Shown: positions 1-14,639 of the stretch, piece by piece
How positions within the stretch are numbered: position 1 is the first letter of the stretch
Layout: each line of letters starts with the position of its first letter
Assembly (NCBI GenBank): GCA_963678315.1
Contig: OY782781.1
Location: forward strand, 2,784,001 to 2,848,000
Source of the DNA: Candidatus Cloacimonadales bacterium
GTDB lineage: Bacteria; Cloacimonadota; Cloacimonadia; Cloacimonadales; JAFGVF01
Direction: 5' to 3'
DNA length: 64,000 nucleotides
Program-made: the position numbers and the translations under genes
The notes under the pieces: generated by a model
Database searches by the model: none
What the model was told of the DNA's origin: nothing
What the model saw: the letters and a program-made list of their open reading frames with translations, nothing else

Positions 1-183
1 TACTAGATTTTTAGCTCTATTCAATTGAAATAAGAAATTAATTCTTGTAATTTAATTCTTAATTCACTTAATTTTAACTAAATATTCTTTAAAATGAAAT
101 TTAGCCAATTTAAATAAAACACTCTTATTTACATATAGACCATAGTTTTACACTACTTCTATCGTCTTTTTTTATAGCCTAAC

Positions 184-212
184 TTGACAACTATAACTTT
201 TTGAACTATCTT
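184..212 (+). promoter_or_regulatory. sigma-70-type promoter of the PEPCK-like gene
   Basis: TTGACA (184-189), 17-nt spacer, TATCTT (207-212), about 100 nt upstream of the ATG at 312. Confidence 0.6.
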
Positions 213-311
213 GCCTTATGTGATTATCAACATCTATTTCGAGATGTCTGGTAATCCTTTTTGCGTTTATAATAGATATAATTTAATAGACTTAAAGGAG
301 ATTGGGATATT

Positions 312-2048
312 ATGGCAAGTAAATCAAGTGCTAGCTATTATGGAGATTTAAAGAAAATGTCAAAAATTAGAGCTTTGGCAGAAACAGCAGTAAACAATTC
401 TAATGTTAGGAAAGTTACTATCGCTGAAGCTTATGAAATGGCAAGAAAACAAGCAGGTGTATCAGAAACAGATTTCGAGATTTATCCAGAATTTGCAAAA
501 AAAGCTGGATTACCATCAGGTGCTAAAGTTCTCAATGACTGTCACGGAACAATATTAGGACGTACTGCAAAAGCTAGAAAATTCTATCATAGAGAAGAAG
601 AAAAGAATCAAATTAGAATTGAAGGCGATATCAGGGAAGCAATGTACGAACTACAACACTATGATTTAATCATGGGAGAAGCTGTTATCGGTCTTGATAA
701 AGACTTGATGATTAAAGCTACTTATGTGACTACCGAAACTGATGCGATGAATATGTTTAATTGGTTAACTAACTTCATCCCTTATGAATTAGTTGCAGAT
801 GAATATGCTAAGAGTAAAGAACTAGATATTCAAGATATCATCATTATTGCTTATAATGATTGGTGTCCACCAAAACAGGATAACTTCTACCATACTGTTA
901 ATTCTACTCAGCTTGCTCTAGTAGATGAAAAAGAGAATGTTATCTTTAACTTCGGTATGAGATATTTCGGTGAAAGAAAGAAAGGAACACTCACTTTAGC
1001 ATGGACTTCTGGTATGAGATTAGGTATGGCAGCGTGTCATGGTGGAATTAAAGAAATTGACTTCACTAACTGCACTGATGAACAATACCAAGATCTAGGC
1101 AAGCGTTCTATAGCTTTCTACGGACTTTCAGGAACTGGTAAATCTTCTCATACTAATAGTATTGATAACTGTGGAACATTACCAGAAGGCTTTAAGAAAG
1201 TTGTTCTTCATGATGATGCTTTCCAAATTGATGTAGAAGAAAAAGTATGCCGTGTGTGGGAACCTAGTCTCTTTGATAAAACAGACTCTAGAACTCCTAG
1301 TCACCAAGACTGGAAATATTGCTTATCTCTAATGAATCATGCAATCATTAATATTGATGGTAAAAGAGTCCCTGTCGGTTTGGATTTAAGAAATGCTAAT
1401 GGTAGATGTCTCTTTGATAGAGATCTTTTAGGAAACTGGGTTAATAGATGTTCTTTCCCTAAAGCTCTTGCTTGGCTTATGAAAGATACAATACTTCCTC
1501 CAGTAATCAGATTTACCAATAAGCATTTAGCAGTTTCAATGGGTACTGCTTTGATGACCAAAAGAAATAGAGCTGAGAACGTCAAGGAAGAAGAACTTAA
1601 CAAATTAGTATTTGAACCTTTCGCTAACCCTTTCAGAGTTTATGAATTGTGGAAAGACGTTGAAGCATTCATCAAAGTAATAGAAAATGGTGCTAATGTG
1701 TATTGTTTCAACTCTATTGGTTATTGGAAATCTTCAGATACAGACTTAGAAGCTATTCCTTTAGCAACTTCATTAACACTTCAAACAGGCATCCTTATGG
1801 ATCAATTAGAATGGGAAGATTGGGACTTATTTGACGGAGCTCAAATTCCTACCAAAGAATCAGTAGATAAAATTCTTCCAGGTTACTATGACCGTTATGA
1901 TCCAAATAAACGTGAAAATATTCATAAATATAAAATGATGGTTCTAGATAGATTTAGACAACGTATGGACTTTATTAAAGGCTCAGATGTAAGCACAAAA
2001 CCTGAATTACTAGATGATTTAATTAAATCATTAAAAGTACATTTATAG
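312..2048 (+). CDS. phosphoenolpyruvate carboxykinase (ATP)-like protein, divergent family
   Basis: 578 aa; YFGERKKG motif, P-loop GLSGTGKSS, metal-binding LHDD, NPF motif; AAGGAG Shine-Dalgarno. Confidence 0.75.
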   Translation: MASKSSASYYGDLKKMSKIRALAETAVNNSNVRKVTIAEAYEMARKQAGVSETDFEIYPEFAKKAGLPSGAKVLNDCHGTILGRTAKARKFYHREEEKNQIRIEGDIREAMYELQHYDLIMGEAVIGLDKDLMIKATYVTTETDAMNMFNWLTNFIPYELVADEYAKSKELDIQDIIIIAYNDWCPPKQDNFYHTVNSTQLALVDEKENVIFNFGMRYFGERKKGTLTLAWTSGMRLGMAACHGGIKEIDFTNCTDEQYQDLGKRSIAFYGLSGTGKSSHTNSIDNCGTLPEGFKKVVLHDDAFQIDVEEKVCRVWEPSLFDKTDSRTPSHQDWKYCLSLMNHAIINIDGKRVPVGLDLRNANGRCLFDRDLLGNWVNRCSFPKALAWLMKDTILPPVIRFTNKHLAVSMGTALMTKRNRAENVKEEELNKLVFEPFANPFRVYELWKDVEAFIKVIENGANVYCFNSIGYWKSSDTDLEAIPLATSLTLQTGILMDQLEWEDWDLFDGAQIPTKESVDKILPGYYDRYDPNKRENIHKYKMMVLDRFRQRMDFIKGSDVSTKPELLDDLIKSLKVHL

Positions 2049-2070
2049 AATTATTATTAAATAACATATT

Positions 2071-2104
2071 AAGGGAAACTAATTTTGGTTTCCCTTTTTC
2101 TTTT
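2071..2104 (+). terminator. intrinsic terminator after the PEPCK-like gene
   Basis: AAGGGAAAC...GTTTCCCTT hairpin followed by a T-tract. Confidence 0.75.
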
Positions 2105-2176
2105 CCAGCATACATATTCTGTAGATACATGCAAATGTATGAATGAAAATTTTTATAAAATCAAAGACATTAATAA

Positions 2177-2258
2177 TTGTCCTTTGGGACGAACACCAGG
2201 TTCTTTCTACCCTGAAAGGGTTATTCTTTCCAAAGCCCAGTACTTCAGTGCTGGGTAA
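2177..2258. repeat. REP-like palindrome cluster
   Basis: GTCCTTTGGGAC, ACCCTGAAAGGGT and CCCAGTAC-TTCA-GTGCTGGG hairpins, related to the GCCCTTTCAGGGC elements at ~42850 and ~56250. Confidence 0.5.
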
Positions 2259-2305
2259 TAATAAAGCCACAGCCCCTATCATACATAAAAAAAAGCAAGG
2301 GTCAA

Positions 2306-2423
<118 letters not shown>

Positions 2424-2483
2424 TTGACCCTTGCCAAAAATGATTTATATTAGTGTTTTTTACTTCATTTATTAATATGTAAG

Positions 2484-2508
2484 TTCGTAAGCAAGATGCT
2501 TACAATCC
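2484..2508. repeat. REP-like palindrome in the 23S-5S spacer
   Basis: TTC-GTAAGCA-AGA-TGCTTAC-AATCC; same family as the copies at 27709, 56067, 58678 and 58845. Confidence 0.65.
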
Positions 2509-2668
2509 TTATTCATAATAAAATAAAGCTATAGAGTGTATAAAATTTAATAAGTAAGACGATCGAGTTATTAGTATCACTCGGCTGAACATATTGCTAT
2601 GCGTACACCTGTGACCTATATACATTGTAGTCTCCAATGACTCTAAGGGGAGATCTAATCTTGAGGTT

Positions 2669-2701
<33 letters not shown>

Positions 2702-2819
2702 GTTCCGAACTTAGCTACTCGGCAATGCAGCTGGCGCCACAACCGATACACCAGAGGTTCGTCCACACCGGTCCTCTCGTACTAAATGAAGATCCTCTCA
2801 AATCTCCTACGCCCACGAA

Positions 2820-2866
<47 letters not shown>

Positions 2867-2869
2867 ACT

Positions 2870-2920
<51 letters not shown>

Positions 2921-2976
2921 AGTTGAGCCGACATCGAGGTGCCAAACACCGCCGTCGATATGAACTCTTGGGCGGT

Positions 2977-3009
<33 letters not shown>

Positions 3010-3348
3010 TTTGAGCAACGGCCCTTCCATTCAGAACCGCCGGATCACTAAGACCTAGTTTCCTACCTGCTCGACCCGTCAGTCTCGCAGTCAAGCTCCC
3101 TTATACCTTTATGCTCTGCAGATGATTACCAACCATCTTGAGGGAACCTTGGTAAGCCTCCGTTACTTTTTAGGAGGCGACCGCCCCAGTCAAACCGCCC
3201 ACCTGGCAATGTCCGATATGTTTTCATATCGTTAGTAAATCAATTTAATAAGGGTGGTATTTCAACAACGGCTCATCACAATCTAGCGACCATGAGTCAT
3301 AGCCTCCCACCTATCCTACACATACTAAACCAATGTACAATGCCAAGA

Positions 3349-3379
<31 letters not shown>

Positions 3380-3446
3380 GTTCGCGGGTAAGCGGTATCT
3401 TCACCGCTATTACAATTTCACCGAGTTCCTGGTTGAGACAGTGCCC

Positions 3447-3534
<88 letters not shown>

Positions 3535-4242
3535 TGGGGCTTCATTTCAAAGCTTCGCAATTAAGCTAACCTCTCCATTTAACCTTCCAGCACCGGGCAG
3601 GTGTCAGTCTGTATACTTCGAATTACTTCTTCGCACAGACCTGTGTTTTTGATAAACAGTCGCTTGGGCCTCTTCACTGCGGCCACTTCATGCTTTGTAT
3701 TGTACATACTAACACTAACGTGGCACCCCTTCTCCCGAAGTTACGGGGTCATTTTGCCTAGTTCCTTAACCAGAATTCTCTCGAACACCTGAGGATACTC
3801 TCCTCGTCCACCTGTGTCGGTTTAGGGTACGGTCTGTTATAATTCAACGTTTAGAAGCTATTTCTCGGCAGTCCTATAAACACACTTTATTAGCTATGCT
3901 ATCGTCCTGTACCTCGGATTGACTCTACGGATTTGCCTATAAAGTCTCCTACATACATTCAACTACTAATCCAACAGTAGTCTGTGCAGCATTACTGCGT
4001 CACTCCATCACTCATTATAACAGGCCCAGGAATATTAACCTGGTTCCCATCAGCTGCGCCGTTCGGCATCGCCTTAGGGGCCGGCTTACCCTCAGAAGAT
4101 TATCTTTACTGAGGAAACCTTGGACTTGCGGTGTGTGAGTTTCTCACTCACATTATCGTTACTCATGCCAACATCGTCTCTTCCGAACGCTCCAACTAAC
4201 CTCACAGTTAATCTTCGTCGCTGTTCAGAATGCTCTTCTACC

Positions 4243-4558
4243 CCCAGCACTTATTTGTATTTTTTTTAGATTGTTTCAATACTATTACTTATACGTTCTT
4301 TCAAAAATCTCTTACTGTTTCCATGTTGTTTGAGTTTTTGCTCACGTTGTCTTGCATCTTTTTCTGAGTAGTATGCTTCATAATATACTAAATCCCATAT
4401 GTCGTTATTAGTATATCCTTTATGTTTACTATTATGTTGTTTAACTCGCTGTTGTAAATTTGATGTATATCCTATATACAATTTCTCTTTACTTCTACTT
4501 ATTAACACATAAACATAGTACATACGAACTCCTAAAAAAAATATAAATAAGTGCTGGG
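4243..4558 (-). mobile_element. protein-coding intervening sequence (IVS) in 23S helix 45
   Basis: AT-rich insert between CCGAAGCCGTGG and GGTAGAAGAGCATTCTG (minus strand), the flanks of helix 45; 27-bp terminal inverted repeat at 4243-4269 and 4532-4558 with one mismatch. Confidence 0.9.
4266..4523 (-). CDS. GIY-YIG nuclease family protein encoded by the IVS (85 aa)
   Basis: MYYVYVL...LYIGYTSNLQQRVKQHN...ARQREQKLK keeps the GIY-YIG motifs with Arg, His and Glu; AGGAG lies 5 nt before the ATG at 4523; same strand as the rRNA. Confidence 0.9.
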   Translation of the reverse strand: MYYVYVLISRSKEKLYIGYTSNLQQRVKQHNSKHKGYTNNDIWDLVYYEAYYSEKDARQREQKLKQHGNSKRFLKERISNSIETI

Positions 4559-4607
4559 CCACGGCTTCGGTTCTATGCTTTAGTCCCGATCATCTTCGGT
4601 GCATTAC

Positions 4608-4641
<34 letters not shown>

Positions 4642-5810
4642 TGGTGGCTGCTTCTAAGCCAACATCCTGGCTGTCTATGCAATTAAACATCCTTTCTCAC
4701 TTAGCATAAAATTGGGGACCTTAGCCGGTGGTCTGGGTTCTTTCCCTTTCGTCCGTGAAGCTTATCCCCCACGGGCTGTCTCCCAGGTATCATTTATAGG
4801 CATTCGGAGTTTGATTGGGTTCAGTAAACTGGTGAGTCCCCTAGCCCATTCAGTGCTCTACCTCCTATAAACTTTTGCCTGAGGCCATACCTAAATATGT
4901 TTCGAAGAGAACCAGCTATCTCCGGGTTTGTTTGGCCTTTCACCCCTACCCACAACTCATCCACTAATTTTTTAACATTAGTTGGTGCGGTCCTTCAGCA
5001 AGTGTTACCTTGCCTTCAACCTGGTCATGGGTAGATCACCCGGTTTCGGGTCTAATCCAATCAACTTAACGCGCTATTAACACTCGCTTTCGCTTCGGCT
5101 ACATTTCTGTAAAACTTAACCTCGCTGAATAGATTAACTCGTTGGCTCATTATGCAAAAGGCACGCCATCGCTATTAAGCTCTGACTGCTTGTAAACACA
5201 CGGTTTCAGGTTCTATTTCACTCCCCTTCTGGGGTCCTTTTCACCTTTCCCTCACGGTACTGTTTCACTATCGGTCACCAAACGTATTTAGCCTTACGAG
5301 ATGGTCCTCGCAGATTCAATCGGAATTTCTCGTGTTCCGACCTACTCGGGATGCTACTAAGATGGTAATCAATTTTAACTACAGGACTTTCACCTTCTCT
5401 GGTTGAACTTCCCAGATCAATTCGTCTATCAATTACTTCTCTACATTGTAGTCCCACAACCCCAGTTATTCAACTGGTTTAGGCTCTTCCCCGTTCGCTC
5501 GCCGCTACTTAGGAAATCGTTTTTACTTTCTCTTCCTGAGGGTACTTAGATGTTTCAGTTCCCCTCGTTCGCCTCCGGTAAACCGGATGACACAACATTA
5601 CTTGTGCCGGGTTGCCCCATTCGGATACCTCCGGGTCGAAGCTTGCTTACAGCTCACCGAAGATTTTCGCAGTTAACCACGTCCTTCATCGCCATTTGGT
5701 GCCAAGGCATCCACCATGTGCTCTTTTGCTCTTACAAAAAAAATCTTACACACTCTATATTACACTCTATTTACTGTTTAAACATCTTAGTTTCCTTTGA
5801 TAAAAAAATA

Positions 5811-5886
5811 TGGTGGAGAATAACGGGCTCGAACCGTTGACCCCCTGCTTGCAAAGCAGGTGCTCTCCCAACTGAGCTAATCCCCC
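5811..5886 (-). tRNA. tRNA-Ala(TGC)
   Basis: GGGGGATTAGCTCAG...TTTGCAA...GTTCGAG...CCA cloverleaf in the 16S-23S spacer. Confidence 0.97.
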
Positions 5887-5891
5887 ACAAC

Positions 5892-5968
<77 letters not shown>

Positions 5969-6057
5969 ATATTTTAATCAGAAACTATATAGATTAAAAA
6001 AGTCCCTATAATCATGAAAGAATGAAAGTGAACTCGTCGAGAAACATTTCTCCTTTA

Positions 6058-7593
<1,536 letters not shown>

Positions 7594-7667
7594 TAATAAA
7601 AATCGTTTTTTCTGTCTCTCGCAAGTTCACATTCATTCTCTCACTCTATAAAAACTTTTAATTTAAC

Positions 7668-7678
7668 TTTCAAAGATC
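7668..7678 (-). promoter_or_regulatory. rrn leader boxA-like antitermination site
   Basis: GATCTTTGAAA on the minus strand between the promoter and the 16S gene. Confidence 0.55.
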
Positions 7679-7731
7679 ATTACCTCTGCTTTGTCGCTTC
7701 GTTTCCTTAGCTCCCGTGCATCGGTTGTGTT

Positions 7732-7759
7732 AAACTATAAGAGCCTGCTTTCTTGTCAA
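7732..7759 (-). promoter_or_regulatory. rRNA operon promoter
   Basis: TTGACA, 16-nt spacer, TAGTTT on the minus strand, with AT-rich sequence upstream. Confidence 0.6.
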
Positions 7760-8026
7760 TACTTATTTTAATCTTTTTATGTTTTTTATTTTATCAATAC
7801 AGACATTCCTCTTTATCATACTTTTGTTAAATAAGCAGTTAAAGTCTCTAATATTTTTATGTATTATTTTGATTATTAATAAAAATTGCTTTAAAATCGA
7901 GATTATATTAATAAATTCAACCTGTAAGTTTCAGAAAAACTTCTATTGTGAGGATGAATATATTTGGTTAGAGTAAGTATGCATTTTAGTTGTTTTCTTT
8001 TCTACTACTATTATATAATATCAATT

Positions 8027-8481
8027 TGCGTAAGCATGAAGTTCCTTCAACCTAGCGGTGGATGCTTACACTCCACAAATCCTCATATCATTCTCCCACG
8101 ATTGAAATCATAGGCTCTGAAGAAAGCTGTCCCTTTGGGACAATCACCTTAAGACCTTCTGCCGAACGTCTCTACTCTGGGCTTGTAGCCATCCTTGGCT
8201 ACGAAAAACACTTTACTTTGTGTAAGCATGAACTTTGTTCAAGCTATCGGTGGATGCTTACACTCCCTTTTCTGAGACGTTCTTCCGAACGCCTCTACAA
8301 ATTCACTTATCACTGCGTTCTAATGAAGCCAGCGCAGAGGCTGGCGATCCCAGTAACTCCTAACTTCTAACACCTCTTTGCCAGCTATCCGGCAGCAGCC
8401 GGACTAAAGGCAAAGCCTTCCCAGTAACTCATAACTCCTTCCTTACGGGTCTCCTTGAAAAATTGGCTTTTTTTCAAAGGA
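8027..8481. repeat. mosaic REP/BIME-like element, family 1 copy A
   Basis: Two GTAAGCAT...ATGCTTAC units (8030, 8222), GTAGCCA...TGGCTAC, GCCAGC/GCTGGC and TCCGGC/GCCGGA hairpins; 8221-8481 is a close inverted match to 27122-27410. Confidence 0.85.
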
Positions 8482-8621
8482 GCAAGTAAGGATGGCCTAT
8501 ATCCTAATAATATCTATACATTATTATATACTACTAAAACATATTTTGAATTTTCTTATTGACAGCATTTTGCAAAAAGCTTGAATTTGCACAACTAACG
8601 ATATCAAAAAAAAGGAGATTC

Positions 8622-10244
8622 ATGATGGGATTTATACCAAGACCAAAAAATGAACCAATTTTATCTTACGCTCCAGGCAACCCAGAAACAGTTGCATTAA
8701 AAGCAGAATTAGAAAGAATGTCTAATGAGACAATCGAGATTCCTCTTATAATCGGTGGAAAAGAAATCAAAACAGGAAATATGGCGCAAGCAGTTGAGCC
8801 ACATAATCATAAAAACGTATTAGCAAACTATCACCAAGCAGGTGAAAAAGAAGTTAATATGGCAATCGAAGCGGCTTTAGAAGCTAGAAAACAATGGGCA
8901 GCTACACCTTATAAAGTTAGAGCTGGAATTTTCTTAAAAGCTGCTGAGCTTATCTCAGGAAAATACAGAGCAAGAGTTAATGCTGCAACAATGTTAAACC
9001 AATCAAAGAATGCTTTCCAAGCAGAAATTGATTCATGTTGTGAACTTACAGACTTCTTACGTTTCAATGCTAAGTTTATGGAAGACATTTATGAAGCACA
9101 AGAACTTACATCTCCAGTTGGAACATGGAACCAATTAGAATACCGTGGTTTAGAAGGTTTTGTATTTGCTGTTTCTCCATTTAATTTCACAGCTATCGGA
9201 GGTAATTTACCTACATCTCCAGCAATGATGGGTTGTGTTGCTTTATGGAAACCTGCATCAACTTCTGTTTTCTCAAACTATATTATAATGAAGATTTTAG
9301 AAGAAGCTGGTTTACCAGCTGGTGTTATTAACTTTATTCCTGGAAGAGGCTCACAAGTTGGTGATCCAGTAATGGCATCAGAACACTTAGCAGGTATTCA
9401 CTTTACTGGTTCTACTGGTGTATTCCAAGGTATTTGGAAAACTGTTGGTGATAACATTGCAAAATATAGATCATACCCTAGAATCGTTGGTGAAACTGGT
9501 GGTAAAGACTTTATCGTTGCACACAAATCTGCAGATGTTAAAGCTTTAGCTACAGCTACAGTACGTGGTGCTTTCGAATTCCAAGGACAAAAATGTTCAG
9601 CTCTTTCAAGAATATATATTCCTGAATCAATGTATGATGAATGGTTAGAATTATGTAAAAAAGATATGAATTCAATGAAAATGGGTGATGTAAAAGATTT
9701 CTCTAACTTCATTAATGCTGTTATCGATGAAAAGAGCTATGATAAAATCACAACAGAGTACATTGAGCATGCTAAAGCAAGCGCTGATGCTGAAGTTGTT
9801 GCTGGTGGTGAATATGATAAATCAGAAGGTTACTTCATCCGTCCTACAATTATAAGAGCTAAAACAGCAGATTATAAATCAATGGTAGAAGAGATATTCG
9901 GACCAGTACTTACTGTATTCACTTATGCAGACGACAAGTATGAAGAAATTCTTGAAGTATGTGATAAAACATCTATGTATGCTCTTACTGGTGCTCTTTG
10001 GGCACAAGATAGATATGCAATTGAAGTTGGAACAAAAGCATTAGTTCATGCTGCGGGTAACTTCTATATTAATGACAAACCAACAGGTGCTGTTGTTGGT
10101 CAACAACCATTTGGTGGTGGTCGTGCTTCAGGTACAAATGACAAAGCTGGTTCTTACTTAAATCTTATTAGATGGGCTTCAGTTAGAACAATTAAAGAAA
10201 CATTTAACCCACCTACAGATTATAGATATCCTTTCTTAGGATAA
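8622..10244 (+). CDS. pruA: L-glutamate gamma-semialdehyde (P5C) dehydrogenase
   Basis: ALDH motifs SPFNF, FTGST, GETGGK, GQKCSA, EEIFGP, GQQPFGG; start moved to the ATG after AGGAG (8622 or 8625). Confidence 0.92.
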   Translation: MMGFIPRPKNEPILSYAPGNPETVALKAELERMSNETIEIPLIIGGKEIKTGNMAQAVEPHNHKNVLANYHQAGEKEVNMAIEAALEARKQWAATPYKVRAGIFLKAAELISGKYRARVNAATMLNQSKNAFQAEIDSCCELTDFLRFNAKFMEDIYEAQELTSPVGTWNQLEYRGLEGFVFAVSPFNFTAIGGNLPTSPAMMGCVALWKPASTSVFSNYIIMKILEEAGLPAGVINFIPGRGSQVGDPVMASEHLAGIHFTGSTGVFQGIWKTVGDNIAKYRSYPRIVGETGGKDFIVAHKSADVKALATATVRGAFEFQGQKCSALSRIYIPESMYDEWLELCKKDMNSMKMGDVKDFSNFINAVIDEKSYDKITTEYIEHAKASADAEVVAGGEYDKSEGYFIRPTIIRAKTADYKSMVEEIFGPVLTVFTYADDKYEEILEVCDKTSMYALTGALWAQDRYAIEVGTKALVHAAGNFYINDKPTGAVVGQQPFGGGRASGTNDKAGSYLNLIRWASVRTIKETFNPPTDYRYPFLG

Positions 10245-10265
10245 TTAATCTAATATAAATTTGTT

Positions 10266-10292
10266 AAGGGACTACGTATTGTAGTCCCTTTT
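10266..10292 (+). terminator. intrinsic terminator after pruA
   Basis: AAGGGACTAC-GTATT-GTAGTCCCTT followed by TT. Confidence 0.75.
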
Positions 10293-10318
10293 CTAGATTA
10301 TTGAGGTAATAAAAAACT

Positions 10319-10813
10319 ATGCAAATAAGGTCAAATAGATTAGTAATAAGAGATTTAAAGGATAGCGACTTGAAATCATTTATTGAATTACATACATCAA
10401 AAAAAGTAATGCAAATGATTCCGATGAAAACACTTTCTCAAGAAGAATCCATATTTGAGTTTAAGAGAATAATTAAAAACAAGAAAGATTCTAAAGTCAG
10501 GGTTTATGCTATAGAAGAGATTTCCATAGAAACAATGATTGGTACATTTGCCATCATTGATTTAGATGATAACTCATGTGAAATAGGATATCGAATAATC
10601 CCAAAGTATTGGGGCAAGGAATATGCCTCTGAGGCTGTTAAGGTTGTTCTTAATCATTTGAAAAAGAACTTTCATTATATAAAGGTTAAAGCAATTATTG
10701 ACATAAAAAATACCAGGTCTCAGAAAGTCATAGAAAAATTCCTAAAACTAGATAGAAAACAATTTAGTGAGAATAATAAAGCATGGGAGTTTATATATAG
10801 TCTTGAACTATAA
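10319..10813 (+). CDS. GNAT N-acetyltransferase, RimJ/RimL type
   Basis: RLVIRDL start, EIGYRI...YWGKEYASEA, NTRSQKVIEK. Confidence 0.8.
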   Translation: MQIRSNRLVIRDLKDSDLKSFIELHTSKKVMQMIPMKTLSQEESIFEFKRIIKNKKDSKVRVYAIEEISIETMIGTFAIIDLDDNSCEIGYRIIPKYWGKEYASEAVKVVLNHLKKNFHYIKVKAIIDIKNTRSQKVIEKFLKLDRKQFSENNKAWEFIYSLEL

Positions 10814-10956
10814 TTGCACTATCAAAATCTAAATTCAACAAAAAAGACATTAGAATAGTTTTTATCTTTACCTACCAATTAATTACAAATTAATAATACT
10901 TGTTTATATGGAACATATAATGCAATTAATAAGATTAAATCAAAATAGGGGGAAAT

Positions 10957-13617
10957 ATGAAAAGATTTTTGATTTGTGTTTTATTTGTTTCATTAGTAGG
11001 ACTTATATTTAGTGTTAATGTTATCGATAACGACAATTTCGTAATGACAGAAGATGTGGAGATTTCCAGCAGTGGGGAAGTTACTTATTCTTATATCCAG
11101 GTGCATGATGGTCTGCAAACTTTAAATGTTAAACGTCGAGATGCAAGTGGGCAAGTAATATCGGCAACTACTTATGAATTTAATCCTCGTAAACTATATT
11201 TTATCAAAGAAAGTTTAGTTACTAGCAATGGTGGTTTTCAAATATTATTTACTGTTGAAAAAGAATATGATGATATGAAATTTCTTAAGTTTTCTGCATC
11301 TTTATATCTAGAAAGTGATATTGATTTTGATTACCGAGTAGCCGGTGTATATAAAGATACAGATAATCTTATTGGGCTTAAAGAAACTGAGGAAAACCTG
11401 TCACATGAGCTTATAATCTTTGATAATGAAACAACTATACTACCTTTCACATGTACTGAAGGTATCTACTTTTTCACCAACAATCATGGAATTAAGAGTT
11501 TCAACGATTATAAATATATCAATGGTCAGCACTCATTAATAAAATTCAATAATGAGGGTGTAGAAGTCATGACTTTGGATTATGAAGAGTATCTAAATAT
11601 TCTTGATTTCGAAGTTGAAGAAGATGGATACGATATTGTTGTTTCTAACCAAATGGGGAATGAATGGAGATTTCATGAGCTTAATAATTCCTTTGAAATT
11701 GAAAGCACAACTATAATCGATAATGATTATTATAGTAATAACTACTATAATCCGTACCCTGGAGCTTTTTTAGAAAATGGTATGTTGACTATTAGTAGCT
11801 ATAATTCTGTTCGTTATCTTAGCATTGCAACTGACACGTGGCAAGAAATTCAAACAGAAAATATATACACAAACACTTTCGAATCTTTAGGCAACAACAA
11901 TTTCATTTACACAAGTATGAATTCTGATATGGATCTTACTATCAGAATGGTTACTCCTTACGAAGATTATTTACTATTTGCTGTAGTTAATGATGACGGC
12001 TATATTTCTTATGACTATAAAATTACACTAAAAGGAGAATATGCAAGTGTTGCATTTATGTCAACTTCTTATAGTACATTTTCTTCTGACCTGGGAGCTG
12101 TAAGAATTGATTTATCTAATTATCCAACGCTTTCAGCTATACAGTATCAATTAGAAACATTTGAGCAAAAGCATATAGATGCTGGTAATCACCAGTTTGT
12201 TCAATATTATGATGATCATGAAATAATTTACTCATACACTGATAATAACACAATTAGAATTCAAAAAACTCAAATCATTAATGATGAAGTTACTGATATC
12301 GAATATGATATTTTAGATTCTCAAGAAACTGAATCCTATTATCACTTTAAAATGGGGATTATCGATGACTATGTAGTTTACTATTACTTAAAAGAATCTA
12401 CTAGTTTCCCTGAAGCCAAATTGATGTATAATTACTATGAAGATGGAATAAAACATTTTGATGAAGATCAGTTTATTGCTTCTAATGTGTCTGATTTAGA
12501 TAGCTACTTTAGTAACATTTGTATCAATAACAACCATATCAACTTTACATTTGTTGATGGCTATACATATTATGGAGATCCATATTTCTTTAATATTGAA
12601 ACAAGCATACTACACCAAGCAGAATTGCCTATAGTTCCAGGATATAGTGAGCAAATGTACCTTCTATATCAAGACAATTTTAATTTAGATTATACAAGAT
12701 TAAGATATGATAGTAACTCTGGGAACCAGGTAAAAATATTTGTTTTAAGTGATGAATTTGAATATGTCCTCTTGTTAGAGGAAGAATTAAGTTCAGATAT
12801 GATAGTTGTCATAAGAGAAGATTACCTAATTTATCAGACACCTACCAGTTTAGTAAAAAGATATGCTAATGGAGATATAACTGAAATTGAAATTCCAGAA
12901 GGACATATAGCTATAAGTTATGATTATAATGAAGATTACATTTTATACACTAATGATAATTTGATTCGTATTTATTCAATTGAAGATATGACATTGGTTC
13001 ACGAGTATTTATGTTCAGAATCTGTTGGAGAAAGAATTCAAGATGCTTATATTGGCTCAGATTCAGTTATTCAATACATTATCCAACAATATCCTACAAA
13101 TTCAGATACATATAGTTTGTCTTATAGAGCTTTCTACAATAATGAAGTTCATGAATCAATCTATTCTCATGATGGATATATTTATCCAATAAGAAATGAA
13201 ACAACACTGGGAAATCCCGACATTATCTTCAACAAATTGTTATTTGGAGAAGAATATGGCATTTCTAATCAGATTTACAGAGATACAAATTATCTATTTA
13301 CTGAAAATACAGAAGAAGAACTGCCTAGTGCTAATACTTGCGTAAAATTATTAGGAAATTATCCTAATCCATTTAATCCTGAGACAAGAATCTCTTTTAA
13401 TGTTTCTGAGCAGAATACACCTGTAGATATTTCTATATACAACATTAAGGGACAAAAAGTTAAAGATATCGTAAAAGATGTTTATTCTAGTGGAAATCAT
13501 TCTGTTGTATGGAATGGTAGCAATGAAAACAACAAGCAAGTATCGTCAGGAATATATTTCTACAAAATTAAAAGTGGAAGATATTCCAAGACAAAGAAAA
13601 TGGTTTTAATGAAATAG
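10957..13617 (+). CDS. secreted protein with C-terminal FlgD-Ig/T9SS type A-like sorting domain
   Basis: Signal peptide; acidic beta-rich body; C-terminal NYPNPFNPETRISF...IYNIKGQKV...SSGIYFYKI...KKMVLMK. Confidence 0.8.
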   Translation: MKRFLICVLFVSLVGLIFSVNVIDNDNFVMTEDVEISSSGEVTYSYIQVHDGLQTLNVKRRDASGQVISATTYEFNPRKLYFIKESLVTSNGGFQILFTVEKEYDDMKFLKFSASLYLESDIDFDYRVAGVYKDTDNLIGLKETEENLSHELIIFDNETTILPFTCTEGIYFFTNNHGIKSFNDYKYINGQHSLIKFNNEGVEVMTLDYEEYLNILDFEVEEDGYDIVVSNQMGNEWRFHELNNSFEIESTTIIDNDYYSNNYYNPYPGAFLENGMLTISSYNSVRYLSIATDTWQEIQTENIYTNTFESLGNNNFIYTSMNSDMDLTIRMVTPYEDYLLFAVVNDDGYISYDYKITLKGEYASVAFMSTSYSTFSSDLGAVRIDLSNYPTLSAIQYQLETFEQKHIDAGNHQFVQYYDDHEIIYSYTDNNTIRIQKTQIINDEVTDIEYDILDSQETESYYHFKMGIIDDYVVYYYLKESTSFPEAKLMYNYYEDGIKHFDEDQFIASNVSDLDSYFSNICINNNHINFTFVDGYTYYGDPYFFNIETSILHQAELPIVPGYSEQMYLLYQDNFNLDYTRLRYDSNSGNQVKIFVLSDEFEYVLLLEEELSSDMIVVIREDYLIYQTPTSLVKRYANGDITEIEIPEGHIAISYDYNEDYILYTNDNLIRIYSIEDMTLVHEYLCSESVGERIQDAYIGSDSVIQYIIQQYPTNSDTYSLSYRAFYNNEVHESIYSHDGYIYPIRNETTLGNPDIIFNKLLFGEEYGISNQIYRDTNYLFTENTEEELPSANTCVKLLGNYPNPFNPETRISFNVSEQNTPVDISIYNIKGQKVKDIVKDVYSSGNHSVVWNGSNENNKQVSSGIYFYKIKSGRYSKTKKMVLMK

Positions 13618-13910: not shown

Positions 13911-14639
13911 ATGAGTAAAGCATGTTTATATATAGTTGCAACCCCAATAGGTAATTGGGACGATATCACCCTTAGAGCACTAAAAGTTCTTAAAGAAGTA
14001 GATTTTGTAATCTGCGAAGAAAGAAAAGTTGGTAGTAGATTACTACGCTATTATGAAATAAAACAAGAAGTAATGCTATTGAATGAACATTCAACATCAG
14101 GTGACATGGAAGAAATATTCAATAAACTATTTCTAGAAGGAAAAACTGCAGCCTTAATATCTGATGCTGGAACTCCACTATTTGCAGACCCAGGTAACAG
14201 ACTTGTCTACAAATGTAATGACAATGGGATTCAAGTTAAACCTGTTCCTGGAGCTTCATCTTTGATGGCTATGTTAATGATTTCAGGACTTAAACTAAAT
14301 AGCTTCCAATATTGTGGATTCCTACCAGCCAATAGAGAAGAAAGGGGTAATGCTTTAAGAAGATATCAAAAACTAACAAATTTAGATCTTGTATTTCTTG
14401 AAGCACCTTACAGACTAAAACAGATTTTGCGTGATATGGAAGTAGTTCTAGGTGCTAATAGAAAGATTATGCTTGGATATAAATTAACTCAAGAGGAAGA
14501 GAAATTCTTTGAAGGAACTATTTCAGAAATGAGAATAATGACTTCAGAACTTCCCAAAGGTGAGTTTGTAGTAGTTCTACCATCTAATAAGGATTCTTTC
14601 TACAAGAGACCTAACGGTACATTTTTCAAGAAAAAATAA
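13911..14639 (+). CDS. rsmI: 16S rRNA (cytidine1402-2'-O)-methyltransferase
   Basis: LYIVATPIGN, ISDAGTP..DPG, PVPGAS motifs. Confidence 0.92.
   Translation: MSKACLYIVATPIGNWDDITLRALKVLKEVDFVICEERKVGSRLLRYYEIKQEVMLLNEHSTSGDMEEIFNKLFLEGKTAALISDAGTPLFADPGNRLVYKCNDNGIQVKPVPGASSLMAMLMISGLKLNSFQYCGFLPANREERGNALRRYQKLTNLDLVFLEAPYRLKQILRDMEVVLGANRKIMLGYKLTQEEEKFFEGTISEMRIMTSELPKGEFVVVLPSNKDSFYKRPNGTFFKKK

Follow-up and report, generated by a model that had tools for sequence, protein, structure and literature searches.

A hairpin-ended insert carrying a GIY-YIG nuclease gene in place of the helix 45 tip of a Cloacimonadota 23S rRNA gene, a probable copy of a mobile cassette

In the 64,000-nt stretch of Cloacimonadota DNA analyzed here (the window), the terminal hairpin of helix 45 in the 23S rRNA gene is replaced by a 316-nt insert that consists almost entirely of a GIY-YIG nuclease gene held between inverted repeats. 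With a probability of roughly 0.6, this segment is a copy of a mobile, hairpin-ended minigene cassette that lies in sense orientation and replaces exposed terminal hairpins of stable-RNA genes, and we infer that it is a selfish, RNase III-dependent intervening sequence (IVS).

Results

Anatomy of the insert in the 23S rRNA gene

The 23S gene occupies positions 2550–5737 of the window on the minus strand (RF02541, 2779.7 bits, model positions 1–2925), in an operon with the order 16S, tRNA, tRNA, 23S, 5S. In a cmscan alignment, the additional sequence falls within a hairpin loop (hairpin at model positions ∼1208–1226), and in a BLAST comparison with E. coli rrlB the alignment breaks between E. 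coli positions 1164 and 1185, which is helix 45. The whole cassette (positions 4243–4558, minus strand) is 316 nt long and is exactly swapped for the native terminal hairpin of this helix, as seen by comparison with a relative that has a 16-nt native hairpin between identical flanks. Its GC content is 0.282, compared with 0.476 for the remaining 23S gene and 0.328 for the genome. An earlier note on this DNA, made from the sequence alone, had described a 316-nt AT-rich replacement of helix 45 closed by a 27-position stem with one A-C mismatch, and both descriptions hold.

The 27-nt ends of the cassette form this closing stem through 14 bp, the A-C mismatch, and 12 bp. The 5′ arm (4532–4558, minus strand) is placed by the fold, the family alignment, and pair counts, and the 3′ arm (4243–4269, minus strand) by the sequence, the fold, and the family alignment. 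When a 336-nt stretch containing the insert was folded, its energy was −76 kcal/mol (z = −5.97), and none of 100 shuffled sequences folded as well. The outer 8 nt of the 5′ arm (4551–4558, minus strand) contain the ..GCAC box that is conserved in the family described below, and the outer 8 nt of the 3′ arm (4243–4250, minus strand) contain its GUGC.. half, which was located in the family alignment.

The 85-aa nuclease ORF fills positions 4266–4523 on the minus strand, including a TAA stop codon (4266–4268, minus strand) that lies inside the 3′ arm. An AGGAG ribosome-binding site (4529–4533, minus strand) is found 5 nt upstream of the ATG, with its first two bases in the top of the stem. The 3′ end of the host 16S rRNA reads CACCUCCUUU, and Shine-Dalgarno (SD) use is common in the host genome, where an SD-like 4-mer is present at −18 to −5 in 860 of 1397 long ORFs, compared with 69 in a control window. 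All but 58 nt of the insert belong to the ORF, which bears out the earlier statement that there is no room for a ribozyme core. No group I or II intron family reached the gathering score in positions 1–12000 of the window (Rfam) or in 20 related loci, and the intron reading was rejected on these grounds.

If the insert is excised without religation, the 5′ part of the 23S rRNA (4559–5737, minus strand) is predicted to be a 1179-nt fragment and the 3′ part (2550–4242, minus strand) a 1693-nt fragment. The host encodes RNase III (rnc; TIGR02191, 246.9 bits, above the cut-off).

The insert is present in the genome together with a shorter, ORF-less form

The host genome (2.99 Mb, one contig) contains four rrn operons, and the 316-nt cassette is present in two of the four rrl copies. 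The second cassette copy (G000:C1:1142646–1142961) lies 1,646 kb away and differs by one synonymous base. The remaining two rrl copies also have an insert, which is 110 nt long, lacks the ORF, and shares the 14-bp stem base; an empty helix 45 allele is thus absent from the host genome. The comparison of rrl copies that the earlier note had proposed shows that the presence of the cassette varies (2 of 4) and that the other two copies are not IVS-less.

Logan contigs for sequencing runs of two studies contain a 348-nt unitig corresponding to positions 4227–4574; its flanks reach only 16 nt beyond the insert on either side, short of the 31-nt standard for bridging. No RNA run was listed among the sequencing runs that contain the sequence. 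The contig search covered contigs of 3 runs from these 2 studies at a likeness of at least 90 and returned unitigs only, none with 31 nt on both sides. In one run (X1), the ORF-bearing form had a depth of 57.9, the short-form joint 61, and the flanks ∼122, values that a genome with two copies of each form would give, although depth is not a measure of copy number. In a different run (X2), there is a joint with a 17-nt native-type hairpin (depth 24.9, side 30) that may belong to another species.

The reading of the insert as an assembly artefact, or as a dead relic with a chance ORF, is refuted by these data. A genome in one contig holds two copies that are one synonymous base apart, the identical unitig occurs in runs of two studies, and the ORF has a highly significant Pfam match with all of its catalytic residues kept (see below); no point was found in favor of this reading. 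The insert is thus real, and not an assembly slip.

The encoded protein resembles Slx1 and UPF0213 proteins

The ORF matches the GIY-YIG family PF01541 with an E-value of 9.4e-17 (61.5 bits; cut-off, 22.6), and an alignment of 61 family members shows no variation at residues Y5, Y16, G18, R26, and E61; this search and the invariant catalytic residues confirm the earlier assignment of an 85-aa GIY-YIG ORF. The Pfam matches listed for the protein (PF01541, PF10544, and PF13455) cover the catalytic domain only, and no DNA-binding domain (NUMOD, zinc finger, or HTH) was found by Pfam in the 85 amino acids. Also absent from its Pfam matches is PF05635 (S23p/23S_rRNA_IVP), the family encoded by the helix 45 IVSs of Coxiella and Leptospira; as a positive control, the helix 45 ORF of another locus (L070) matches PF05635 at 77.3 bits. 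NCBIfam gave no match above any cut-off (TIGR01453, 16.6 bits versus 56.05). A conserved C-terminal Asn is not among the invariant or nearly invariant columns of the 61-member alignment.

The only PDB sequence match of the ORF is 1zg2. An AlphaFold2 model of the protein (pLDDT 92.6) was compared with known structures by Foldseek, which placed 1zg2 (UPF0213) first, followed by Slx1 (7cq2, 6seh, and 4xm5; TMq 0.58–0.64) and At-HIGLE (7wme; TMq 0.69), whereas I-TevI was found only with a TMq of 0.45 at an E-value of 1; the Foldseek E-values are weak (best, 4.7e-3) because the domain is small. Based on the domain matches, the catalytic residues, and this model, the product is predicted to be a minimal GIY-YIG protein of the Slx1/UPF0213 type, unlike I-TevI. 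It is also predicted to form a homodimer, with contact through the strand at residues 44–53, as the dimer model has an ipSAE of 0.70 compared with 0.01 for the best of 3 controls, and three runs gave a contact agreement of at least 100% of the smaller set with a partner pLDDT of at least 81. Among proteins of known structure, 20 of 30 one-chain pairs attain this mark, compared with 1 of 23 single chains; these counts hold only roughly here since a custom alignment was used.

Three free-standing paralogs are present in the host genome. The cassette ORF is closer to foreign cassettes (54–59% identity) than to these paralogs of its own genome (41–48% identity). In a protein tree of 82 columns, support for its sister is below the star threshold; its nearest row is L122 or L115 in one tree and L114 in another (SH-aLRT 74–81), and it does not cluster with other helix 45 cassettes.

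Patchy distribution within the phylum

Of the 232 genomes from this phylum, only 7 have copies embedded in rRNA genes, at three different 23S sites. Within genus g58, we observed empty, half-filled, and filled-with-one-decaying helix 45 alleles whose flanks are 99.9–100% identical. In genome G206, both helix 45 sites are empty and one of the two rrl copies carries a cassette at the 270-site; in G203, one helix 45 site is empty and one is filled; in G204, both are filled, one by a copy with a frameshift and stops. The element thus behaves as selfish and patchy, its presence differing between the rrl copies of one genome, and the corresponding claim of the earlier note is supported by these observations.

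Of 27 loci examined in the phylum, at least 10 directly follow tRNA-Asn, as do two of the host paralogs. Genomes of a sister genus that have no cassette ORF contain ORF-less inserts of 211–256 nt with like ends. The 110-nt insert and five inserts of the sister genus were translated in six frames and searched with the family HMM (81 rows, one of them in the wrong frame), and no ORF remnant was detected (best E-value, 1.6).

A family of hairpin-ended cassettes in several phyla

The insert belongs to a family of ∼300-nt hairpin-ended cassettes composed of inverted repeats, a ribosome-binding site, and a 75–90-aa GIY-YIG gene. Family elements are 263–320 nt long, and their terminal stems of 13–28 bp hug the ORF. 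The window cassette has each of the features that define the family: a length of ∼260–320 nt, an ORF of 75–90 aa, and the ..GCAC/GUGC.. box.

Relatives of the cassette ORF at 45–59% identity occur in several phyla. They occupy no fewer than six sites in 23S as well as 16S, and they are also seen next to RNase P RNA matches and away from RNA genes; some are apparently inside protein-coding genes, as read by eye, and others are in intergenic gaps. Among 40 genome loci with a relative, 23 are associated with stable RNAs: 7 are inside rRNA genes, 1 is in a tRNA-Ala/23S spacer, 2 adjoin an RNase P RNA match or overlap it, 1 sits 154 nt before tmRNA, and 12 are within 250 nt of a same-strand tRNA. 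Seventeen of 75 metagenome loci are inside rRNA genes. The orientation is sense in all 24 rRNA-embedded loci, and exact replacement of a native hairpin is also seen at other sites and in genus g58. In the 23S gene of a Desulfobacterales MAG, a GIY-YIG cassette at E. coli 540/553 is accompanied by a PF05635 IVS in helix 45.

In 27 aligned cassettes, the 12 outer stem pairs are 98% paired, a value that is partly built in, as the stem ends were picked by a best-stem search. Compensatory changes were found at 11 of these 12 pairs, with 71 double-change cells compared with 17.9 in shuffles (0 of 500 as high). The pairs most often kept in the 27 cassettes are C8-G (27), C4-G (25), C10-G (25), A9-U (23), and G7-C (22). 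In the aligned sequences, the base of the stem (..GCAC/GUGC..) is conserved, and the rest of the stem covaries.

Eight pairs of cassettes from different phyla share a site. Their cassettes are 63–70% identical and their rRNA flanks 71–95% identical; because the cassette identity is below the flank identity, there is no sign of recent transfer between phyla in these pairs.

Discussion

If the segment is a copy of a mobile cassette, host RNase III would cut the 27-position stem in the pre-rRNA and leave the ends unjoined, and the 23S rRNA would work as pieces of 1.18 and 1.69 kb, as with known helix 45 inserts. Since each of the four rrl copies has an insert, no unbroken 23S rRNA would be expected. 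The nuclease would be translated from the stem-loop RNA once this is released, or from the nascent transcript. The nuclease, probably as a homodimer, may then break DNA, leading to the copying of the cassette by recombination into other rrl copies, and such copying could also reach incoming or outgoing rDNA. Rather than a long target sequence, it would likely read DNA structure, the conserved box of its own stem base, or both. The ORF-less inserts with the same ends (110 nt in the host and 211–256 nt in the sister genus) could be non-autonomous or decayed partners.

The allele states in genus g58, where empty, half-filled, and filled-plus-decaying alleles share nearly identical flanks, look like spread and bear on the proposal of the earlier note that the nuclease drives homing. 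In its classical form, a sequence-specific endonuclease would cut IVS-less helix 45 DNA, repair from the filled copy would follow, and RNase III would merely render the insert harmless. In two lineages that are far apart in the phylum, the hairpin is replaced exactly and at an identical junction, which fits this scheme. So does the state of the ORF, which is whole in the presence of mixed alleles and disrupted where the insert is fixed (G204) or apparently old (G227 and G228). Sequence-specific cleavage of an empty allele is harder to reconcile with an 85-aa catalytic domain that has neither NUMOD nor another DNA-binding domain and whose fold is nearest to Slx1/UPF0213, with I-TevI far lower. 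Close relatives occupy many sites, in 23S, 16S, near RNase P RNA matches, in intergenic DNA, and apparently in protein genes, and the cassette ORF does not group with those of other helix 45 cassettes. Moreover, the occupied sites belong to the least conserved regions of rRNA, an argument that Tsurumaki et al. make for the Candidate Phyla Radiation (CPR) in the available text of their article (PMC11270868), and the host genome has no empty allele. Classical homing is thus weakly supported, and we consider it quite improbable, so that of the earlier proposal the spread-like alleles stand and the sequence-specific model is weakened. The mixed allele states would also be expected from ordinary gene conversion between rrl copies, and a passive passenger could spread in just this way, with occasional transfer of rDNA, while its nuclease gene uses the strong rRNA promoter and serves the host (e.g. 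in branched-DNA repair) or nothing at all. The stable free-standing family members downstream of tRNA-Asn, the ORF-less inserts that persist in the sister genus without a nuclease, and the lack of any sign of recent transfer are in line with such a passenger. We nonetheless regard it as unlikely, as the cassettes keep their ends and size around the ORF whatever the phylum or site, the same cassette is found in unrelated host genes, and decay after fixation fits a selfish gene and not a useful one.

The conserved box could be an RNA-processing signal instead of a DNA recognition site. The protein might even act on RNA itself, binding or cutting the conserved stem base in pre-rRNA as its own excision factor, instead of or beside RNase III, an idea consistent with conservation of the box across phyla with differing RNase III enzymes. 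This is very improbable in our view, as the matched GIY-YIG relatives (Slx1, At-HIGLE, UvrC, and I-TevI) are DNA nucleases, and like-ended ORF-less inserts occur alone in genomes without a cassette ORF, where excision cannot depend on the protein. A fusion does hint at an RNA role of prokaryotic Slx1-like domains in the part of the survey by Dunin-Horkawicz et al. that is available (PMC1564403). A bolder form of the mobile-cassette reading, which we put forward only tentatively, is an undescribed autonomous DNA element. Its dimeric Slx1-like nuclease would read branched or cruciform DNA plus the box at its own stem base and cut hairpin palindromes at their base in highly transcribed stable-RNA genes, the cassette would replace the native hairpin without target duplication, and many "classical" non-coding rRNA IVSs, including the 110-nt and sister-genus inserts seen here, would be its non-autonomous derivatives.

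Several aspects of the window cassette have counterparts in known IVSs. In Salmonella, IVSs in helices 25 and 45 are excised by RNase III (PMC2672173, available sections). RNase III-excised IVSs of this kind (PMC2672173 and PMC11270868, both in part) resemble the window cassette in replacing the tip of helix 45 with a stem-closed insert, in their patchy occurrence and variation among rrl copies, and in the presence of a host RNase III, and here too a 23S rRNA in two pieces is predicted. The classical inserts are ∼80–110 nt and non-coding, whereas the window cassette has a translatable nuclease gene and a stem base that is conserved across phyla. The ORF-bearing IVS of Coxiella burnetii (428 nt; PMC4990558, available portion) is closer, with the same site, a similar size, an ORF within a stem-loop, and RNase III excision that yields ∼1.2- and ∼1.7-kb fragments like those predicted here. 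The same portion of that report describes rapid degradation of the excised IVS RNA, with the ORF product seemingly not made in vivo. The Coxiella IVS differs in encoding the four-helix bundle S23p/23S_rRNA_IVP (PF05635) and not a GIY-YIG protein (PF01541).

Inserts in CPR rRNA genes are reportedly treated by Brown et al. in 2015, to whom Tsurumaki et al. refer for them. In the available text of Tsurumaki et al. 2024 (PMC11270868), GIY-YIG ORFs are described in non-intron rRNA inserts of CPR bacteria (Patescibacteria). These, like the window cassette, show no resemblance to group I or II introns and occupy several little-conserved sites, and their spread by homing is doubted. They differ in their hosts, the window genome being from Cloacimonadota. 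The terms "inverted repeat," "palindrom," and "hairpin" do not occur in the main text of that article as available; a cassette design with hairpin ends, a conserved stem base, and ORF-less partners are thus not described in that text. In the literature searched, mostly non-subscription journals, we found no GIY-YIG gene in a 23S IVS outside the CPR and no hairpin-ended GIY-YIG cassette.

Among GIY-YIG proteins, the best sequence and fold matches are the stand-alone UPF0213/Slx1-like proteins (1zg2 and 1ywl; PMC1564403, available part), which likewise consist of a minimal domain without a conserved C-terminal Asn. That part of the 2006 survey makes no mention of rRNA residence or hairpin ends, and no biochemical function of the bacterial UPF0213/YhbQ proteins was found in the literature searched, again mostly non-subscription journals. 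The Slx1 of eukaryotes includes a RING domain and depends on Slx4, whereas the window protein is a bare GIY-YIG domain. Homing endonucleases of the I-TevI type share the catalytic superfamily and the situation of a selfish gene inside an interrupted RNA gene, but they sit in an intron and have a linker and a DNA-binding domain, and the window protein is without all three.

How bacterial rRNA inserts are tolerated and how they move has been an open question since the 1990s. The window insert, with its intact nuclease, conserved ends, ORF-less partner alleles, and relatives in empty, half-filled, and decaying states, makes this question directly testable. Inserts of this kind make rRNA genes longer and split the 23S rRNA, and they may confuse rRNA surveys and RNA quality scores. 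If the nuclease drives their spread, these cassettes would be among the smallest self-propagating genetic elements known, and non-coding rRNA inserts would be linked to a protein-coding parent.

Insert in helix 45 of the 23S rRNA gene

The minus strand of the window encodes a full rrn operon, consisting of the 16S (6058-7593), 23S (2550-5737), and 5S (2306-2422) rRNA genes and two tRNAs. When the 23S rRNA was aligned to a covariance model, ∼300 extra bases fell within a hairpin loop (hairpin at model positions ∼1208-1226), and BLAST with E. coli rrlB placed the break point at E. coli 1164/1185, the helix-45 span named in an earlier note on this DNA. The insert (4243-4558, minus strand, 316 nt) has a GC content of 0.282 compared with 0.476 in the remainder of the gene. 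Its two 27-nt ends form the closing stem that the same note described (14 bp, one A-C mismatch, and 12 bp), and its fold has a z score of −5.97, with none of 100 shuffles equally good. The stem arms enclose AGGAG and, after a 5-nt spacer, an 85-codon frame that opens with ATG and has its stop codon inside the 3′ arm. The product of this frame matches PF01541 (E 9.4e-17), in agreement with its proposed identity as a GIY-YIG nuclease. Shine-Dalgarno sites are used by this organism: a Shine-Dalgarno-like word is present at −18 to −5 of 860 of its 1397 long ORFs (69 in the control window), and the 3′ end of its 16S rRNA is CACCUCCUUU.

The genome is a single contig of 2,988,751 bases with four rrl (23S rRNA gene) copies. 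The 316-nt insert is present in two of these, the window's copy and one at 1.14 Mb, which are separated by one synonymous change (codon 54). The remaining two carry a 110-nt insert without an ORF. This insert shares its outer 14 bp exactly with the long form, and its predicted fold is a near-perfect hairpin (z −7.4). Thus, the rrl copies differ in insert type, but this genome contains none of the insert-less alleles that the earlier note envisaged as nuclease targets. These four places are the only ones in the genome where the conserved end motif and its reverse complement occur less than 800 nt apart.

Elsewhere in this genome, two 82–83-aa GIY-YIG paralogs (loci L014 and L015; G000:C1:11243-11781 and 14193-14600) are found beside tRNA-Asn(GTT), outside the window. 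They are 47–48% identical to the cassette ORF, and in front of both stand a GGAGG and a terminator-like hairpin that the two have in common. tRNA-Asn-like pieces, one of them called "tRNA-???" by aragorn, adjoin these paralogs; in another nearby tRNA-Asn-like copy, a longer hairpin seems to substitute for part of the 3′ half.

Genomic contexts and sites of the cassette family

A search of proteins of 46–149 aa identified 1043 relatives at E ≤ 0.001, the best at 64% identity; the 120 best of these are 75–118 aa long. Among 40 loci from species genomes, six are in 23S rRNA genes, one is in a 16S rRNA gene, one is in a tRNA-Ala/23S spacer, two abut or overlap an RNase P RNA match, one stands 154 nt before tmRNA, and 12 are within 250 nt of a same-strand tRNA. 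Of 75 metagenome loci, 16 are in 23S and one is in 16S rRNA genes; this set includes one rRNA-embedded locus on the same contig as a species-genome locus and four weak loci without a tblastn match on re-running. Further copies occupy short intergenic gaps. Every rRNA-embedded copy is oriented in the rRNA sense.

At each rRNA site, the cassette substitutes for a terminal hairpin. In E. coli numbering, the 23S sites are 270-371, 529-560, 1164-1185, 1704-1770, 1854-1875, and 2789-2821, and the 16S sites are after position 66 and at one further place. We take these to be 23S helices 25, 45, 63, 68, and 98 and 16S helix 6. Helices 25 and 45 are named as insert sites in published accounts (PMC2672173, PMC11270868).

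Two GIY-YIG cassettes are present in one 23S gene of Methylomicrobium sp. wino1 (CP024202; locus L071), one of 299 nt at E. coli 539/554 (766-1064) and the other within a 492-nt composite insert (2379-2870) with an extra outer stem at ∼E. coli 1865. In a Desulfobacterales MAG (L070), the GIY-YIG cassette of the 23S gene is at 540/553, and helix 45 of this gene contains a 438-nt insert (3385-3822) that codes for an S23p-type PF05635 23S_rRNA_IVP protein (77.3 bits); the gene therefore combines two kinds of coding insert. In a Saccharimonadales locus (L077:2465-2767), a cassette with ends of this kind directly precedes the part of the RNase P RNA match that reads GGAAAGUCCGGG, where the P3 hairpin lies.

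Several other loci are recorded here as observations. A cassette with similar ends abuts or overlaps an RNase P RNA match at L080:2368-2665. By eye, cassettes seem to interrupt coding frames at L084:2474-2756, where the flanks form one frame resembling an ATPase-type domain, and at L139:1486-1801, where they resemble a YD-repeat protein. A tandem cassette pair (L134:2473-2776 and the bases after) is found at the end of an apparent aminoacyl-tRNA synthetase gene. The 23S gene of an actinomycetote (UBA9087) has a 760-nt insert (L072:4161-4920) at E. coli 1931/1932, which we take to be a classic group I intron site; all intron families scored below their gathering thresholds on this insert.

Turnover of the cassette among rrl copies

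A protein search found family matches at E ≤ 1e-10 in 57 of 232 genomes of the host's phylum, and 27 loci were examined. The six best are all in 23S rRNA genes: at helix 45 in genomes G203 and G204, at the 270-371 site in G206, G227, and G228, and at 539/554 in G135. In 10 of the 27, with weaker matches, the GIY-YIG gene is directly downstream of tRNA-Asn, like the two paralogs in the window's genome.

Genomes of genus g58 (G203, G204, and G206) have two rrl copies each and exhibit three helix-45 states. Both copies in G206 have a native 24-nt helix 45. G203 has one native copy and one filled with an intact ORF, and the flanks of the two copies agree at 100 and 99.9% of positions over 612 and 1179 nt. 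Both copies in G204 are filled, one intact and the other disrupted by stop codons and the loss of 4 nt. The filled alleles are an exact swap for the native hairpin, with no remnant and no duplication. At the 270 site, a cassette is present in one of the two rrl copies of G206 and is broken in G228 and G227. The g58 series is what a cycle of gain, fixation, and decay predicts; it shows recent turnover and does not itself identify the agent.

The rrl copies of G203 (L216 and L221) and of G204 (L217 and L222) also differ by ∼50 nt in length, with blocks shifted by 52 nt, and are 96–97% identical in the first 600–700 nt of the aligned loci. This difference, near the 23S start (∼E. coli 131-165), hints at another variable insert site.

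A search of 40 relatives from the host's family and order gave homologs with at most 47% identity to the cassette ORF, and the 23 loci retrieved from them all lie outside 23S genes. The state of helix 45 was read at 30 loci in 17 genomes, with no more than two rrl copies taken from each; most have a native hairpin of 12–28 nt. In the 11 loci of the sister genus, five have a 211–256-nt ORF-less insert and six have a 16-nt native hairpin, and both states co-occur in two genomes. The sister-genus inserts have ends like those of the 110-nt form (17 of 22 positions match at the 3′ ends by hand count on the alignment), and the family HMM detected no ORF remnant in either. The inserts of L041, L045, L046, L059, and L062 have in common a well conserved inner segment of ∼90 nt with its own hairpin. 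These states are most simply read as an old ORF-less helix-45 insert in the host family and a later arrival of the ORF cassette, in two copies, with the stem base in common; this common stem base might alternatively be a product of gene conversion.

Cassette ends and encoded protein

The elements are 263–320 nt long, with 13–28-bp terminal stems tight around the ORF. When 27 distinct cassettes that share the end type of the window's cassette were aligned, the outer 12 stem pairs were 98% paired, a figure that is partly built in because the ends were chosen by a best-stem search. Pairing falls to 31–44% when the partner is slid by 1–3 columns, and both-side changes occur in 11 of the 12 pairs (71 cells compared with 17.9 in shuffles; none of 500 shuffles gave as many). 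Sequence conservation is free of the best-stem bias, and the pairs C4-G (25 of 27), G7-C (22), C8-G (27), A9-U (23), and C10-G (25) are nearly constant. A second, CCCTGTTA-like end class coincides with a separate protein clade (6 label changes over the tree compared with 14.6 in shuffles; none of 500 shuffles gave as few) and was not seen in rRNA among the loci examined.

Residues Y5, Y16, G18, R26, and E61 are invariant in an alignment of 61 sequences, which has no conserved Asn. With an AlphaFold2 model of the cassette protein (pLDDT 92.6), Foldseek ranked UPF0213 (1zg2) first, followed by Slx1 and plant HIGLE (TMq 0.58–0.69), and I-TevI far below (TMq 0.45, E 1); the domain is so small that every E-value is weak. 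1zg2, the sole PDB sequence match, has been assigned to a prokaryotic Slx1-like cluster of minimal domains (Dunin-Horkawicz et al., PMC1564403). A homodimer model, with a predicted interface of strand 44-53 and the last helix, gave an ipSAE of 0.70 compared with 0.01 for the best control, and in three runs contact agreement was at least 100% (of the smaller set) and partner pLDDT at least 81. Known one-chain pairs attained this mark in 20 of 30 cases and single chains in 1 of 23 (counts that are approximate with a custom alignment). The modeling supports a protein that may bind itself as a homodimer.

Discussion

The anatomy of the cassette, its family, its exact replacement of hairpins, and its turnover are established. 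The earlier note had suggested homing by the nuclease. The turnover between rrl copies in g58 agrees with this idea, but classical sequence-specific homing fits poorly because cassettes occupy many sites, the protein is without a DNA-binding domain, and its fold is Slx1-like. The linkage of the nuclease to the cassette, together with decay after fixation, suggests that it may take part in cassette spread. Tsurumaki et al. (PMC11270868) likewise doubted homing as the explanation of the GIY-YIG inserts that they studied in rRNA genes of CPR bacteria. Theirs is the closest description that we found in the literature; the main text of that paper makes no mention of inverted repeats or hairpin ends. 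The conserved box is constant over phyla and host genes while the remaining stem drifts, which argues for its recognition by something element-borne; a common processing need could also maintain such a box.

The ribosome-binding site and conservation of the ORF suggest that it is translated, but the Coxiella helix-45 insert, as described in PMC4990558, is a precedent against assuming translation. By analogy, RNase III would cut the insert out of the pre-rRNA. An rnc gene is present in the window's genome, cleavage of the Coxiella insert by RNase III is reported to yield ∼1.2- and 1.7-kb pieces (PMC4990558), and Salmonella inserts are reported to be excised as well (PMC2672173). Since all four rrl copies contain inserts, every 23S rRNA molecule of this organism would be split if the inserts are excised.
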